Below, piece after piece: positions 1 to 26,048 of a DNA stretch of 64,000 nt. The notes under the pieces are model-generated. The model worked only from the letters and a program-made list of their open reading frames with translations. It was not told the origin of the DNA and did no database searches. The position numbers were made by a program, and so were the translations under genes. Every line of letters starts with the position of its first letter. The first letter of the stretch is position 1. The stretch comes from Candidatus Poribacteria bacterium (GTDB lineage: Bacteria > Poribacteria > WGA-4E > WGA-3G): the NCBI GenBank assembly GCA_965214095.1, contig OZ243938.1, forward strand, positions 4,896,001 through 4,960,000. The letters run 5' to 3'.

Positions 1-3000
1 CAAAATAATCTAAAAAGTATCGATCCAAGAATTCCGATTGGCACGCTCTGTTGCGTAACTGGAGTAAGTGGTTCTGGAAAGAGTTCTCTTATCCATGATA
101 TTCTATACAAAGCACTTGCCAGAGATTTAATGAAAGCAAAGACTGTGCCGGGTGACTATGAAAAGATTCAGGGGATTGTTGATGGTGAACCTGTCCCTGT
201 CTCAGATGTCATAGACAAAATCATCAACATTGATATGTCACCCATAGGTCGGACACCTCGCTCCAATCCTGCAACCTATACAAAAGTTTTTGATGCAATC
301 AGATCATTTTATACAAACTTGCCTGATGCTAAACTTCGTGGATATAAACCTGGACGTTTTAGTTTCAACGTTCCGGGTGGTAGATGTGAAGCCTGTACAG
401 GCAACGGTGCAAAAAAAGTTGACATGGGTATACTTGCGGATGTGTGGGTTGAATGTGATGTTTGTAACGGTAAACGGTATAACAATGAAACCCTCACTAT
501 AAAATACAAAGGCAAGAACATATCCGATGTATTAGAAATGGATATTGAATCTGCACTTGAGCATTTTGCGGATCTCCCGAAAATTGCAAAAGGAATTCAG
601 TTGCTTCACGATGTAGGTTTAGACTACATCAAACTTGGTCAACCTGCTCCAACACTTTCTGGTGGTGAGGCACAGAGAATTAAACTCTCAAAAGAACTTT
701 CAAAACGGAGTACCGGTAAGACACTTTATATTCTTGATGAACCGACTACTGGTCTACACTTTGAAGATGTCAATAAGCTGCTAACTATTCTTCACAGATT
801 AGTTGATGAAGGTAATACTGTTGTGGTGGTGGAACACAATCTTGAAGTGATTAATTCTGCTGATTACCTTATTGATTTAGGTCCTGAAGGAGGAATTGAT
901 GGTGGACAGATTATTGCAGTTGGCACGCCTGAAGAGGTGAAAGATAAATCCGAATCGTATACTGGACAAGCATTACATGGGGAATATGATCTGTGGAAAT
1001 CGCTGGACTCTAAACCGTCAGTTGAAGATAACGGTGATGTTGCACAAGACCTACTCGATCAAAAACAGACCGAAATACGTAAGTCTATCTTGGTTCAAGG
1101 AGCTGGTGAAAACAACCTTAAGAACATCAATATTGAAATACCGCATCAGAAGTTAACTGCGTTTACAGGTGTTAGTGGATCAGGCAAGACATCTCTTGCA
1201 CTTGATACTATTTATGCTGAAGGACAACGAAGATATATTGAGACACTTAGCACTTATGCACGGCAATTTATTGGGAGTATGGACAAACCGAAAGTGGCTA
1301 AGATTGAAGGATTGTCACCTGCAATTGCTATAACTCACTCAAGTCCAAGCCAGAACCCTCGCTCTACCGTTGCTACGATAACTGAAATACATGACGGTCT
1401 TCGAACACTATATGCAAGATGGGGGCAACCGCACTGTCCATCTTGTGAAGTGGAAGTCCGTCCACAAACAGCACAACAGATTGTAGAACGTTCTTTCAAA
1501 AATTTGAAAGGCAAAAGAGTAGATGTACTTTCACCACTCACGAATTTCAAATCTATCGAAAATGATACTGAGGTCGTTATTGGTGCAGAACGAACACCCG
1601 GTCTAAAGGGAAATGAGGATTATGCCGATGCATTTCAAAGATTGCAACGAACAGGATTTGCACGCGTACAGATTGATGGTGAAATCTATAGGCTTGATGA
1701 AGCACCTGATATCCGAAAACGTCGTCGGCATGAAGTGTTTTTGGTCATTGATCGGCTGAATCTTGTTGAAGATGAGATAAGTCGTTTCACTGAGACTGTA
1801 GAATTAGCACTCATCGAAAGTGAAGGTTTTGTAATCATTCAACCGAATGATAGTAAAGAATTATCTGAAAGACAATTTTTCAGTGAACACGCTATGTGTT
1901 CAAAATGTGGACGGAATTTCCCGCAACTAACACCCCGACACTTCTCATTCAACAATAGATTAGGGGCTTGCAGTTCTTGCGACGGTATTGGTAGAGAATT
2001 AACGGATGACCAATCAACCTGCGAGGATTGTTATGGGACAAGATTAGATGAATTTCCAAGAAATGTCAGATATACTGAAAAAACAATTGCAGAACTGATG
2101 GCTTTGTCAATCGCTGAGATTTCATCGTTTTTCAATGGACAGATAGAAACTATTGAGAAACATCTAACAACGGCTGCAGGTGCTAAGGAAGCAGAATCAG
2201 CGAAGGATCAAGTGCGAAACGTTATTACTTCAAGGGCAACACACCCAAGACTTCATGCACATACATCACCTGAATTTGAAGCACAACTTTTAAGGCAAAT
2301 TCAGTTACGGTTGAGTTTTTTAGAGGATATCGGGCTCGGATACCTCGGTTTAGATAGAACTGCCCCAACGCTTTCTGGTGGAGAAATCCGCAGAATCCGA
2401 CTTGCAAGCCAACTTGGAACTGGACTTACTGGAGTTACTTATATCCTTGATGAACCGAGTATCGGTCTGCACCCGCGCGATCAAGAACGGTTGATTTATG
2501 CAATGAAAGATCTGCGCGACATCGGTAACAGTGTCCTGGTTGTTGAACACGACAGAGATACAATTATGTCTTCTGATCATGTTATTGATTTCGGTCCAAA
2601 AGCAGGAAAGCAAGGTGGAGAAATAGTTGCGGTTGGAACACCAAACGCATTTTCTAACGCAGAACCGATTTCTATGGAAACCGCCATACAATCAGATAAC
2701 GGGGATGACTCTGCAAGAGATGCGAACCTTACAGCCAAAAAAGGATTAACACAGTCATATCTATCAAACGAGATGCAAATCCCTGTTCCAGCGGTGCGTC
2801 GAAAAGGTTCAGGTAAAAGCCTTAAACTGTTCGGTGCAAGAACTAACAATCTTAAAGACATTGACATTAACATTCCAATAGGAACGCTTACATGTGTGAC
2901 GGGTGTTTCTGGGTGTGGAAAGAGCTCGCTGATTGAAGGCACATTACGACCGGCAATGGAATCACGCAAATCAATTAAAAAGAATAAAAATAACACTGGG

Positions 3001-3828
3001 AAAAACAATGTAACTGAGAACTATGACAAAATACAAGGTATAAGTCATGTTGAACGTATTATACACATTGATCAGAAACCGATAGGTGAAACACCACGAT
3101 CTAATCCGGCAACCTATACTGACCTATTTACCAAGATTCGTGAGATGTATGCAGAATTACCTGACGCAAAACTTCGTGGATTTAATCGGGGACGTTTCAG
3201 TTTCAACCTATCTTATGGGCAATGTGAAGTATGTGATGGACAACGTTACAATCGTGTTGAGATGCATTTCTTACCCGATGTATGGATACCTTGTGAAAAC
3301 TGCAATAGCACAGGATATAATGCTGAAACATTAGAAGTGAAATACAAAGGCAAAAACATAGCCGAAGTGTTACAGATGACAGTGCTAGAGGCACTTGAAC
3401 TGTTTAGTAACATCAACCGAATTAAACGCACACTCCAAACTTTAGCAGATGTAGGTTTGGATTATATCCAGTTAGGTCAAGCTGCAACTACGCTTTCTGG
3501 TGGAGAAGCACAACGGGTTAAACTTGCAAAGGAACTCGCAAGAAGACAGACTGGAACGACTCTTTACATTATGGATGAACCCACAACTGGTTTGCACTTT
3601 GACGATGTGCAAAAACTTCTCAATGTCCTAAATAAACTTGTTGATGTGGGTAATACAATCGTTGCAGTTGAACACAATCTGGATGTCATTAAATCTGCAG
3701 ATTGGGTTATTGATTTGGGACCTGAGGGAAGTGATGCTGGAGGATACCTTGTAGGAATGGGAACTCCTGAAGAGGTGGCTGAAGTGAAAGAATCACATAC
3801 TGCTCGTTTCCTCCGTGAGATACTTTAG
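1..3828 (+). CDS. uvrA: Excinuclease ABC subunit A, tandem-duplicated form (5' part outside window)
   Basis: Frame 1 is open from base 1 (QNNLKSID...TGVSGSGKSS). Three Walker A motifs (GVSGSGKS, GVSGSGKT, GVSGCGKS), three LSGGE/DEP signatures, zinc fingers and two PRSNPATY motifs: the end of one UvrA module followed by a complete second one. Confidence 0.95.
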   Translation, partial: QNNLKSIDPRIPIGTLCCVTGVSGSGKSSLIHDILYKALARDLMKAKTVPGDYEKIQGIVDGEPVPVSDVIDKIINIDMSPIGRTPRSNPATYTKVFDAIRSFYTNLPDAKLRGYKPGRFSFNVPGGRCEACTGNGAKKVDMGILADVWVECDVCNGKRYNNETLTIKYKGKNISDVLEMDIESALEHFADLPKIAKGIQLLHDVGLDYIKLGQPAPTLSGGEAQRIKLSKELSKRSTGKTLYILDEPTTGLHFEDVNKLLTILHRLVDEGNTVVVVEHNLEVINSADYLIDLGPEGGIDGGQIIAVGTPEEVKDKSESYTGQALHGEYDLWKSLDSKPSVEDNGDVAQDLLDQKQTEIRKSILVQGAGENNLKNINIEIPHQKLTAFTGVSGSGKTSLALDTIYAEGQRRYIETLSTYARQFIGSMDKPKVAKIEGLSPAIAITHSSPSQNPRSTVATITEIHDGLRTLYARWGQPHCPSCEVEVRPQTAQQIVERSFKNLKGKRVDVLSPLTNFKSIENDTEVVIGAERTPGLKGNEDYADAFQRLQRTGFARVQIDGEIYRLDEAPDIRKRRRHEVFLVIDRLNLVEDEISRFTETVELALIESEGFVIIQPNDSKELSERQFFSEHAMCSKCGRNFPQLTPRHFSFNNRLGACSSCDGIGRELTDDQSTCEDCYGTRLDEFPRNVRYTEKTIAELMALSIAEISSFFNGQIETIEKHLTTAAGAKEAESAKDQVRNVITSRATHPRLHAHTSPEFEAQLLRQIQLRLSFLEDIGLGYLGLDRTAPTLSGGEIRRIRLASQLGTGLTGVTYILDEPSIGLHPRDQERLIYAMKDLRDIGNSVLVVEHDRDTIMSSDHVIDFGPKAGKQGGEIVAVGTPNAFSNAEPISMETAIQSDNGDDSARDANLTAKKGLTQSYLSNEMQIPVPAVRRKGSGKSLKLFGARTNNLKDIDINIPIGTLTCVTGVSGCGKSSLIEGTLRPAMESRKSIKKNKNNTGKNNVTENYDKIQGISHVERIIHIDQKPIGETPRSNPATYTDLFTKIREMYAELPDAKLRGFNRGRFSFNLSYGQCEVCDGQRYNRVEMHFLPDVWIPCENCNSTGYNAETLEVKYKGKNIAEVLQMTVLEALELFSNINRIKRTLQTLADVGLDYIQLGQAATTLSGGEAQRVKLAKELARRQTGTTLYIMDEPTTGLHFDDVQKLLNVLNKLVDVGNTIVAVEHNLDVIKSADWVIDLGPEGSDAGGYLVGMGTPEEVAEVKESHTARFLREIL

Positions 3829-4267: not shown

Positions 4268-4486
4268 ATGATTCATATAAAAGAAGAACTCTGCGTATAT
4301 TGCGGGGCATGCGTAGCAGTATGTCCAGAAAACATAATTGAACTTGTAGACACACATCTTAAAATTGACCAACCTAAGTGTATTGATTGTATGAAATGTG
4401 TAAAAGGGTGTCCCATAGGGGTACTATCTATGGAACGTAAAGGAAAAATATACGAATTTGATTTTCCAAACAGAGGTCTTTTCTAA
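4268..4486 (+). CDS. 2x[4Fe-4S] ferredoxin
   Basis: CVYCGACVAVCP and CIDCMKCVKGCP motifs; GAGG RBS. Confidence 0.9.
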   Translation: MIHIKEELCVYCGACVAVCPENIIELVDTHLKIDQPKCIDCMKCVKGCPIGVLSMERKGKIYEFDFPNRGLF

Positions 4487-4518: not shown

Positions 4519-4621
4519 TATGGTGAAGTATAAAATTATATCTACACTTTCGTCCCACGGTAGACGAGGTTTCCTAACCTCGCCTCAGCAATGTGTAGAA
4601 TTTATTCAATAATTTACTCTA
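4519..4621. repeat. Degenerate TATAGT-shell MITE with GTAG REP
   Basis: TATGGTGAA...ACTCTA ends; core CCCACGGTAGACGAGGTTTCCTAACCTCGCC resembles the copies at 22.8 and 31.2 kb. Confidence 0.7.
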
Positions 4622-4641
4622 AATATTCACTGAGATGAAAT

Positions 4642-5835
4642 ATGTATCATTCAGATTATGATGTTATAGTTGTTGGTGCGGGACCGGGCGGATCTATTGC
4701 AGCAAAAGTTGCTGCTGAAAACGATTTACGCGTCCTGCTTTTAGAAAAACGACAAGAAATTGGAACACCCCTCCGCTGAGCGGAGGGGATTGGCACAGTG
4801 GATCTGTGTGAATTTATTCAACCGGAACCTGCATGGATATCGCGTACAATACACGGTGTCCGACTCTTTTCACCAAATGAAACTCCTGTTACTATTCATC
4901 ATGAAGATGCTGGTTATGTAATTGAGCGGAAAGTGTTTGATCGAAGACTTGTGGAATTAGCTACTAATGCTGGTGTGGAAATCATGGTTAAGGCACGTGT
5001 CACTGATGTAACCACCACAGAGAGTAATGTTGTTAACGGGGTCGTTTTCCAGTATTCTGGTCGCGAGTACAAATGTAGAGCCAAAGTTGTCATCGCAGCT
5101 GATGGTGTAGAATCTCAAGTAGGACGTTGGGCAGGTATTGATACAACACATCAACTCCGCGACGTTGGTATATGTGCACAATATCTCATCTCAAATATTG
5201 ACATCATACCAGAATATTTGGATTTTTATTTCGGCAAGGAGAAAGCTCCACTCGGATATATTTGGGTCTTTCCAAAAGGTGATGATATTGCTAATGTTGG
5301 GATAGGAATTAGAGGGAGTATATCTGGAAAAAGTGATAAACTTGCTATAGATTACTTAAACGAGTTTGTTAAAAGAAAGTTCCCAGAGGGAAAGACATTA
5401 GGGTTAGTCTGTGGTGCTGTACCAGTTGGAACAGGTTTACCACGAATAGTCGGAGATGGAATATTGCTTGTAGGAGATGCAGCACATCACAGTGACCCCT
5501 GTTCAGGTGGCGGTATTCCAAATGCAATGTTCTCTGGTAAATATGCTGCAGAAGCTGCTATTGAAGGTATACATAAAGGGGATGTCTCTCAGAAAGTACT
5601 TAGTTCGTATGCTAAAAAGTGGGAACGTGAGAAAGGAAGAAACTTCAAACGTATCTGTCGTATCAGAGATTGTGTTCTCAAATATACTGATGAAATGTAT
5701 GATGAATATGCCGAAGTACTCTCTAAAGTACCCAGTGATCAGATGACATTAGCAAAAATCTTCCAAACCTTCCTAAGACATCAACCGAGTTTACTTCTTG
5801 AATTGCGTCATCTGATTTTAGCAGGATGGGTATAG
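4642..5835 (+). CDS. Geranylgeranyl reductase family flavoprotein (DGGR-like) with in-frame TGA at codon 46, putative selenoprotein
   Basis: ATG 4642 gives [18 protein letters not shown] (Rossmann motif)...[14 protein letters not shown](4777-4779)-AEGIG, continuing in frame into ORF 4798-5835. GGR motifs: [24 protein letters not shown]. Confidence 0.85.
4790..4812 (+). promoter_or_regulatory. Putative bacterial SECIS hairpin
   Basis: GCACAG-TGGAT-CTGTGT stem-loop starting 14 nt after the TGA, with G in the loop. Confidence 0.5.
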
Positions 5836-25302: not shown

Positions 25303-26037
25303 TTATGTTCCTTTCTGCATACTGTTTCTTAGAATAGGAGGTGTTCCCTCATCCTGTAAAAGCGAAAGTGTTTCAGCAATTATCGCATGTTGTAATTCTG
25401 AATTGTTCGGTTCTCCCAACGGATGTCCAAAACTATACGGAACAAGCAATGCACGCGGGGGTTTCACCTTCTTCGTGATGTCTTCCAAGAGTGTAATAGA
25501 TACAGTAGATATTCCCACTTCTTCAACAACACGTTGAATCAATCCTACAGACTGATTGCATAGCGGTCACACCGGAGTTAAGAATGCAACATCAACACCA
25601 TCAGCTTTAAGCATCCTTGCTACCTCTGGAGCAGTGTCCGCAATGAGATGCTTCGGTCTTGAAATTGATCCCATAAAACTGAAGTGTCTATGATTAAGAG
25701 AACCGATTTTTCCTTCATTCTCCAGTTCTTTAAAACGATCAATAGGAAAAACAAGATTGGCATCTGTTTTTGTATCAGACTTATCGTAGGCAACGCTTTT
25801 ATGTCCGACCTTTAGTTCATTAGACTGAATTGAATTGGGAATCTCGCGGTAGGAACAATCACCGTTTACATAAGGTTCCTGTCCATTGATATAAAATCCC
25901 GCAGTCGTAATGAGAACAACATTACATTCATTCAAAGGTTTCTTAAGCGGTGTGTTTGGAGTCGTGCCATACCGTTTGCCACGATAAAACCGCATAAAGA
26001 AACGGAATAATGGTTCAAGTTCACTTATTGATGCCAT
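25303..26037 (-). CDS. Glycine/proline reductase selenoprotein B (GrdB/PrdB)-like protein, Sec at codon 157
   Basis: ORFs 25567-26037 and 25303-25542 are in frame. The junction reads FLTPV-TGA(25567-25569)-PLCNQSVGLIQR, a UxxC motif. Family motifs LITTAG, FPIDR, HFSFMG, PPRA...GHPLG. Confidence 0.9.
25537..25557 (-). promoter_or_regulatory. Putative bacterial SECIS hairpin
   Basis: AATCAGTC-TGTAG-GATTGATT 8-bp stem separated from the TGA by 9 nt. Confidence 0.65.
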
Positions 26038-26048
26038 ATTTATCCTAA

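Follow-up and report, generated by a model that had tools for sequence, protein, structure and literature searches.

A predicted selenocysteine-containing geranylgeranyl reductase in one order of Candidatus Poribacteria

We analyzed a stretch of 64,000 nucleotides (C1:4896001-4960000; C1 is contig OZ243938.1) from the genome of a Candidatus Poribacteria bacterium; this whole stretch is called the window below, and positions without the prefix C1 are counted from its first letter. The host is a sponge-associated bacterium, and its genome has 5.25 Mb in 4 contigs. The window contains a gene of the geranylgeranyl reductase (GGR) family that is interrupted by a single in-frame TGA codon, at the position where other GGRs carry their active-site cysteine (Cys). 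We found that this TGA is conserved in one order of Poribacteria, that a conserved stem-loop follows it, and that the genome has the full bacterial machinery for selenocysteine (Sec). Judging from these comparisons of sequences, the gene product is very probably a genuine selenoprotein. The reading as a whole, a Sec-containing, flavin adenine dinucleotide (FAD)-dependent geranylgeranyl (polyprenyl) reductase, is one that we hold with good confidence.

Reading frame, enzyme family and conservation of the TGA

The open reading frame (ORF) runs on the forward strand from ATG at 4642 to TAG at 5833-5835, and its translation has 397 residues with one internal stop. This sole internal stop is the TGA at 4777-4779, which is codon 46 in the context TPLR-U-AEGIG (U denotes Sec). 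With translation table 11, the ORF list gives only a 345-codon ORF from GTG 4798 at this locus. The original prediction, made from the letters of the window, had described a gene start at 4642 with an intact FAD motif, a single TGA in PLR*AEG, and an otherwise intact gene. All of these points agree with the translation. VVGAGPGG occupies residues 10-17, so the FAD-binding motif of the GGR family (GxGxxG) is present. Because this motif stands 5' of the TGA, it is missing from all truncated gene calls.

The read-through protein was matched by the Pfam family GGR_cat (PF22578, 88.7 bits, cut-off 27), by FAD_binding_3, and by the NCBIfam model TIGR02032 (GG-red-SF, 230 bits, cut-off 158.8). Using the motif definitions given in the available parts of PMC10821996 and PMC6309074, we found Y206-I-W-V-F-P211 (YxWxFP), G289-G-G291 (GGG), R96-K-V-F-D100 (RxxxD) and L-V-G278-D279 (LxGD), all of which are invariant among 19 orthologues. 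The protein could be aligned over its whole length to the digeranylgeranylglycerophospholipid reductase (DGGR) of Thermoplasma (3oz2, E = 1.2e-74) and to the chains of the Sulfolobus GGR (SaGGR), and U46 falls on their active-site Cys. The AlphaFold2 model (predicted local distance difference test 88.4, predicted template modelling score 0.88) matched the three-domain GGR fold. Its best match in the PDB was 3oz2 (template modelling score 0.87), followed by the SaGGR entries; its low-confidence stretches, residues 39-44 and 286-289, flank U46 and the GGG motif. Among the best 120 matches in a collection of 5.8 billion proteins, the closest named homologues were the DGGRs of Methanosarcinales and Methanocellales (47-49% identity). 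By these comparisons the enzyme appears nearest to the ferredoxin-linked GGRs of the Methanosarcinales type.

The available text of PMC6309074 describes the active-site Cys (Cys47 in the Sulfolobus enzyme, Cys45 in the Thermoplasma enzyme) as a redox modulator behind the isoalloxazine ring. In the available text of PMC10821996, this Cys is thought to serve electron transfer or flavin tuning. It is essential in the Sulfolobus enzyme, according to the literature. Together with the alignment to 3oz2 and the SaGGR chains, these sources bear out the earlier statement that a conserved FAD-proximal Cys (Cys47) belongs at the position of the TGA.

To follow the codon through the phylum, we used a six-frame search of 61 genomes (the source genome and 60 relatives) and a scan of 176 Poribacteria genomes. 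The 61 genomes gave 25 full-length orthologues (66-100% identity), each with exactly one TGA, and in all 25 it stands in the same column, P-[VL]-R-TGA-A-E-G. A GGR match at E ≤ 1e-60 was obtained in 55 of the 176 genomes. The TGA was found at 39 places, and every one of these belongs to families f1-f4 within a single order; the copy of G134, with its further TAG, and that of G123, truncated by the end of its contig, are counted among them. Outside the order, 13 genomes of families f5-f11 hold the gene (46-64% identity), and their copies are free of stops. Reversion to TGY (TGT or TGC) was seen in none of the 39 TGA holders.

Two other collections gave a similar picture. At 39 loci of a contig collection, the codon in this column was TGA in 35 and TGT in two (L084 and L085, 60% and 64% identity), and the N-terminus was missing at a contig end in the remaining two. 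Column 46 was spanned by 62 of the best 120 protein matches (46-64% identity), and the residue was Cys in 62/62. The remaining 58, at 63-91% identity, start no earlier than query residues 53-116; they are Sec forms clipped by gene callers, as had been expected of annotation pipelines. The alternation between TGA and TGY proposed as a check on the Sec reading was thus observed, with TGA in one order and Cys codons around it.

We built a tree of 38 Sec and 29 Cys forms with FastTree and used a Methanocellales sequence as its root. All Sec forms group in one clade (38/38 tips, support 0.837) nested among Cys forms, and the sister of this clade is a Cys clade of Poribacteria. Locus L093 (G134) contributed only 64 residues to the tree, since its reading frame ends early at a TAG. 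In everything searched, the Sec form of GGR appears confined to one order of Poribacteria. Among 80 metagenome loci related to the protein P0204, we found no TGA form outside this order (TGC 49, TGT 25, without N-terminus 6).

Two proteins found among the 150 best 50%-identity representatives, P0204 and P0268, have their initial Met opposite query residues 84 and 90 (at 40% and 36% identity), much like the clipped Sec forms. Their starts may have been mis-called, or they may represent Sec forms of independent origin.

Decay of the gene was also observed within the order. G134 (L093) has its extra TAG at codon 65, the gene is split in G016 (L049), and the N-terminal part in G040 (L050) contains two TGA and one TAG. 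Remnants were seen in G036 (L051), G021 and G037.

We then compared the codons on the two sides of the TGA in 26 gap-free orthologues. In this comparison, where synonymous sites are close to saturation, the ratio of non-synonymous to synonymous differences (pN/pS) was 0.092 for codons 1-45 (pS = 0.716), and codons 47-397 gave 0.185. Purifying selection on the 45 codons 5' of the TGA is, by this estimate, stronger than on the remainder. The truncated calls begin at widely differing codons within residues 53-116, which leaves no conserved site for a restart. From these data the N-terminal stretch with the GxGxxG motif is clearly predicted to be translated in frame with the rest.

The TGA was also looked for in assembled contigs of independent sequencing runs. 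One contig of run X6 (258 nt, depth 8.4) spans 4691-4948 and keeps the TGA; its seven differences leave 4777-4779 untouched, and three of them fall at third codon positions beside the TGA. Runs X1 and X2 gave no cover over the gene, and X5 covered it in part, with the TGA outside. The X6 contig gives weak backing to the TGA as a real part of the sequence; reads with TGT or TGC had been named in the original prediction as refuting it.

Stem-loop and selenocysteine machinery

The region 4765-4830 was predicted to fold into two adjacent hairpins (−29 kcal/mol, z = −3.92), and none of 200 shuffled sequences was as stable. One is a perfect palindrome around the UGA and the other lies 3' of it. In the latter, the outer stem is 4789-4791/4811-4813, the core stem is 4793-4798/4804-4809, and the loop is UGGAU at 4799-4803. 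When the stretch from the TGA onward was folded without the palindrome, z was −1.53 and 15 of 200 shuffles were as stable. The 3' hairpin alone is therefore unexceptional in energy, and its significance comes from the comparison across genomes.

In 37 distinct sequences, the 6-bp core helix had standard pairs in 98.6% of 222 cells. Shifting the 3' partner of the helix cut the pairing to 9.5-68%. Two-sided changes were found at two of the six core pairs (C-G to U-A in 4 sequences, A-U to G-C in 6), which gives 10 compensatory cells; none of 500 shuffles reached that number or the covariation score. The double changes fall on at least three separate branches of the tree (L046-48, L074 and L060/L097). 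They recode Thr-Cys to Ala-His or Ala-Arg, which argues that the RNA structure constrains the protein here and not the reverse. By eye, no equivalent hairpin was seen in the two Cys loci inspected, L084 and L085, where the codon is TGT.

The G at 4800 in the loop (column 39) is invariant and is the 24th base from the U of the UGA. In the bacterial Sec insertion sequence (bSECIS) consensus, a stem-loop begins about 11 nt after the UGA and has a conserved G in its apical loop; the features of this stem-loop fit that consensus. A hairpin after the TGA had been predicted at 4790-4812. The hairpin itself proved to be real and conserved, with compensatory changes, and its span has been corrected to 4789-4813.

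The palindrome, in which the UGA forms the 3-nt loop, is stronger than the 3' hairpin, and we considered it as a functional element and rejected it. In the relatives, 75.9% of its cells pair and no compensatory change was found. The Cys loci L084 and L085 pair to a like extent, at 6 and 7 of the 9 positions by hand count. The palindrome can be traced to the peptide motif: P, V/L and R have second codon positions complementary to those of A, E and G, and in this way the conserved peptide fixes three of the pairs. We judge it to be a by-product of the P-[VL]-R-x-A-E-G codons that is not specific to Sec.

The source genome holds all genes of the bacterial Sec system, in agreement with the earlier suggestion that it decodes Sec. 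Profile searches found selA (616.3 bits) and selB (355.5 bits, cut-off 242), and selB lies directly upstream of tRNA-Sec, about 27 kb beyond the window. ARAGORN also reported a tRNA-SeC with anticodon tca. The gene selD itself carries an in-frame TGA. The models of SepSecS, which belongs to the archaeal and eukaryotic Sec route (PF05889 and TIGR03531), stayed below their cut-offs, so the Sec route is the bacterial one (SelA/SelB). Across the phylum, selA was present in 163/176 genomes and in 38/39 TGA holders; the one holder in which it was not found, G083, is assembled in 730 contigs.

We also calculated stop codon usage in 1379 stop-to-stop ORFs of at least 400 codons (TGA 269, TAA 719, TAG 391). 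TGA ends 269 of these long ORFs and hence is not reassigned. A second, classical UxxC selenoprotein had been noticed in the window. It is a GrdB-like ORF with the motif TPVUPLC, and a comparable hairpin with the loop GUA starts 11 nt after its UGA. Taken together, the machinery, the alternation of TGA and Cys, and the conserved hairpin support the proposal of a Sec-containing GGR, and all the conditions that the original prediction had listed as refuting it turned out on the side of Sec.

Gene neighborhood and candidate lipid pathway

The features discussed here are collected in Table 1. A ferredoxin homologue lies directly upstream of GGR in 34 of 39 related loci. In relatives the distance between the two genes ranges from a few to a few hundred bases, and in most loci (f2-f4) it is about 10 bases or less. 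Fusion proteins of Fer4 and GGR (465-480 residues, 48-50% identity; P0082-P0100 and similar) were also observed, and some of them are labelled Candidatus Poribacteria. Such fusions are an argument that ferredoxin and GGR work together. According to the available text of PMC10821996, the GGR of Methanosarcina acetivorans requires a ferredoxin from its own locus.

In the source genome, a repeat lies in the spacer between the ferredoxin and GGR genes. Long copies (~100 nt) number about 31-40 in the genome and are 89-93% identical, and the 40-nt core occurs about 165 times; public contigs break and depth spikes at this repeat. Further upstream, a UvrA homologue (130-3828, forward strand) is unusually long, with 1232 residues. 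With the UvrA_inter domain starting only at residue 494, the protein seems to be extended at its N-terminus by a few hundred residues.

Table 1. Positions of the features in the window and, where marked C1, elsewhere on the contig.
Feature	Position	Strand	Evidence and remarks
GGR family gene	4642..5835	+	397 codons, Sec predicted at codon 46; TIGR02032, GGR_cat, 3oz2 alignment, model
UGA, predicted to be read as Sec (U46), at the GGR active-site Cys position	4777..4779	+	column aligned with Cys of 3oz2 and SaGGR chains
GAGPGG dinucleotide-binding (FAD) motif, residues 12-17	4675..4692	+	G12, G14, G16 and G17 invariant among 19 orthologues
bSECIS-like stem-loop	4789..4813	+	fold and pairing across relatives
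Perfect 9-bp palindrome, UGA as loop	4768-4776/4780-4788	+	fold
2x[4Fe-4S] ferredoxin, 72 aa, probable electron donor	4268..4486	+	Pfam Fer4_9/Fer4; conserved adjacency
Repeat element in ferredoxin-GGR spacer	4519-4617, core 4545-4588		genome-wide repeat
GrdB-like ORF, second selenoprotein candidate, TGA at 25567-25569	25306-26040	-	Pfam GRDB, 37.2 bits (cut-off 22)
tRNA-Sec (selC)	C1:4989496-4989585		78.1 bits (gathering score 47)
selD, in-frame TGA at C1:1272242 (KCAGUASK)	C1:1272212-1273138		361.4 bits
PcrB (with GrpE-DnaJ)	C1:267794-268468		TIGR01769
UbiA (with SpoU)	C1:1385605-1386435		nearest to models of digeranylgeranylglyceryl phosphate synthase

The Cys outgroup L084 and relatives belonging to four families share the gene order UbiA(-UbiA)-(SpoU)-ferredoxin-GGR-PcrB-HrcA-GrpE-DnaJ; this clustered arrangement was seen in the GGR flanks of L064, L071, L076, L058 and L084. 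PcrB is downstream of GGR in 27/39 loci, and UbiA is upstream within 3 kb in 23/39. The PcrB proteins pass the equivalog TIGR01769 of geranylgeranylglyceryl phosphate (GGGP) synthase (GGGPS), with 220.5 bits in the source genome and 211.5 bits for a second protein (cut-off 161.55). The UbiA proteins are nearest to the models of digeranylgeranylglyceryl phosphate (DGGGP) synthase and fall under their cut-offs (231.7 bits, cut-off 296). Because GGR lies between a DGGGP-synthase-like UbiA and a GGGP synthase in relatives, it would be expected to take part in the saturation of archaeal-type ether lipids. In the source genome this ether-lipid cluster is dispersed, and GGR adjoins neither GGGPS nor UbiA.

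We examined how GGGPS and GGR are distributed over the phylum. GGGPS is present in 144/176 genomes and in 53 of the 55 GGR holders, and the two holders in which it was not detected are 73% and 64% complete genomes. In family f3, the same 9 of 29 genomes, from the same genera, hold both. Judged by this gene context, ether-lipid gene sets based on GGGPS seem to be widespread in Poribacteria.

Alternative readings and biological meaning

The mechanism that we propose is as follows. The UGA at 4777-4779 would be recoded by the bacterial Sec system, with SelB carrying Sec-tRNA(Sec) expected to bind the stem-loop at 4789-4813. Sec would be inserted at residue 46; in all other GGRs this position belongs to the active-site Cys, which sits at the isoalloxazine ring of FAD. 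Electrons would probably come from the 2x[4Fe-4S] ferredoxin encoded upstream, judging by adjacency, fused homologues and the Methanosarcina precedent. Likely substrates are the geranylgeranyl chains of glycerol ether lipids of the GGGP/DGGGP type, and the source genome keeps GGGPS and UbiA elsewhere. The Sec form probably had a single origin in a Cys form, at the base of one order of Poribacteria or close to it, and would later have been lost or pseudogenized in many lineages.

It could be argued that the TGA is a true stop, so that the locus is a pseudogene or encodes a 45-residue peptide and a 345-residue protein restarted at GTG 4798. Table 11 yields only the 345-residue ORF, all public calls of close relatives are likewise truncated, and some relatives are decaying (G134, G016 and G040, with remnants in G036, G021 and G037). 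However, the 45 upstream codons have the low pN/pS given above, keep the frame in 39 genomes at identities as low as 66%, and hold the GxGxxG motif that the fold needs for FAD binding, and the start codons downstream are not conserved. A true stop is barely credible to us. The TGA could instead be read through as tryptophan or Cys, either by near-cognate decoding or by reassignment in the whole lineage, and Cys would be functional here, as it is in all homologues. This is very improbable as well, since TGA is an ordinary stop in a genome with the full Sec machinery, and since the conserved, covarying hairpin after the TGA is missing where the codon is TGT. The lack of any TGY reversion among the 39 clade members fits selection for Sec itself.

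The substrate is a separate matter. A Sec enzyme could act on something other than ether lipids, such as a quinone side chain, a polyprenol, free geranylgeranyl diphosphate or phytyl diphosphate, or a terpenoid of the sponge or a symbiont. A bacterial GGR homologue reportedly acts on sterols (PMC12004948), which counts for this possibility. So do the separation of GGR from GGGPS and UbiA in the source genome, the presence of GGGPS in 144 genomes and of GGR in only 55, the missed equivalog cut-offs for reductases of digeranylgeranylglycerophospholipid (DGGGPL), and the promiscuity of GGRs (PMC10821996, in its available text). On the other side, the UbiA-(SpoU)-ferredoxin-GGR-PcrB order is kept across four families and the Cys outgroup L084, the nearest named homologues are DGGRs of Methanosarcinales and Methanocellales, and GGGPS and GGR occur in the same genomes of family f3. 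Another substrate is in our view rather unlikely, and an ether lipid is somewhat favored as the substrate.

Several observations weigh against a Sec-containing, ether-lipid-saturating GGR or against parts of this reading. The DGGGPL reductase equivalogs NF041160, NF041080 and NF041385 were not reached (282.2/780, 181.1/580 and 99.2/700 bits); the protein is therefore not filed under this equivalog, and the lipid substrate rests on gene context. GGR is absent from 96 of 111 other family-f1 genomes (15 keep it), and GGGPS is kept in 101 of the 111, so the link between GGGPS and GGR is not obligatory. Matches to glycerol-1-phosphate dehydrogenase (PF13685, 40-50 bits) are unspecific, as a control also responds in 13 of 14 genomes, and the match to cytidine diphosphate-archaeol synthase (PF01864) is weak (24.2 bits over 89 positions). 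An Rfam scan of 4600-5000 with E up to 10 gave no match. The conservation of the hairpin may be partly driven by the protein because it overlaps the codons for the conserved LCEF. The support for the Sec clade is moderate. Among the orthologues, one contains an additional TAG, and in two others the gene is split or broken. No RNA run was listed among the sequencing runs that hold the locus.

We compared the Sec-containing GGR with known systems. It has the same fold and motifs as the archaeal GGRs (Ta0516, 3oz2; SaGGR, 3atq/4opc), and residue 46 is at the position of their active-site Cys. It differs from them in having TGA as the codon for this residue, in its bacterial host, and in scores below the DGGGPL reductase cut-offs. 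Like the GGR of Methanosarcina acetivorans described in the available text of PMC10821996, it has a small 4Fe-4S ferredoxin gene directly adjoining the reductase. Here, however, Sec would take the place of Cys, a repeat splits the gene pair, and ferredoxin dependence is presumed. With the selenoproteins of the SelB/bSECIS type (SelD, GrdB) it shares an in-frame UGA at a catalytic Cys position, a genome with selA, selB, selC and selD, and a stem-loop 9-13 nt after the UGA with a G in its apical loop.

To our knowledge, GGR is not among the established selenoprotein families. No report of a Sec-containing GGR was found in the literature searched, although an entry under a generic name (FAD-dependent oxidoreductase) in the supplements of surveys is possible. 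The mechanism of recoding and the enzyme family are both standard; what is new is their combination, a Sec variant of GGR.

A GGGPS and DGGGPS-like gene set in a bacterium is also described for the FCB (Fibrobacteres, Chlorobi and Bacteroidetes) group and Cloacimonetes in the available text of PMC7852524. The present case differs in that it concerns Poribacteria and that the cluster includes a ferredoxin and a predicted Sec-containing GGR. In the literature searched, we found no paper on such an ether-lipid gene set in Poribacteria. The available part of PMC7203096 mentions Poribacteria only in taxonomy, and GGGPS does not appear in it.

The finding would add a flavoenzyme of lipid biosynthesis to the bacterial selenoproteome, and it offers a natural Sec/Cys pair with which the function of the active-site Cys, essential in GGRs, could be studied. 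Sec substitutions typically sit at redox-active Cys residues. If this is true here, the invariant Cys of GGRs would share directly in the transfer of electrons or protons between ferredoxin, flavin and substrate. Compared with Cys, Sec has a lower pKa and higher nucleophilicity, undergoes one-electron chemistry more easily, and is more resistant to irreversible over-oxidation. We speculate that this chemistry could speed the relay from ferredoxin to flavin or shield it in an oxic host. The case also reveals a systematic annotation error, in that every public gene call seen for the clade is without the FAD-binding N-terminus.

We suggest, tentatively, that one order of Poribacteria may saturate archaeal-type isoprenoid glycerol ether lipids, the products of its own GGGPS and DGGGPS-like enzymes, by a ferredoxin-driven GGR in which Cys has been upgraded to Sec. 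The GGGPS-based ether-lipid gene set, widespread in this phylum, bears on the "lipid divide" between bacteria and archaea, and the ether-lipid genes of Poribacteria bear on the source of isoprenoid lipids in sponges.

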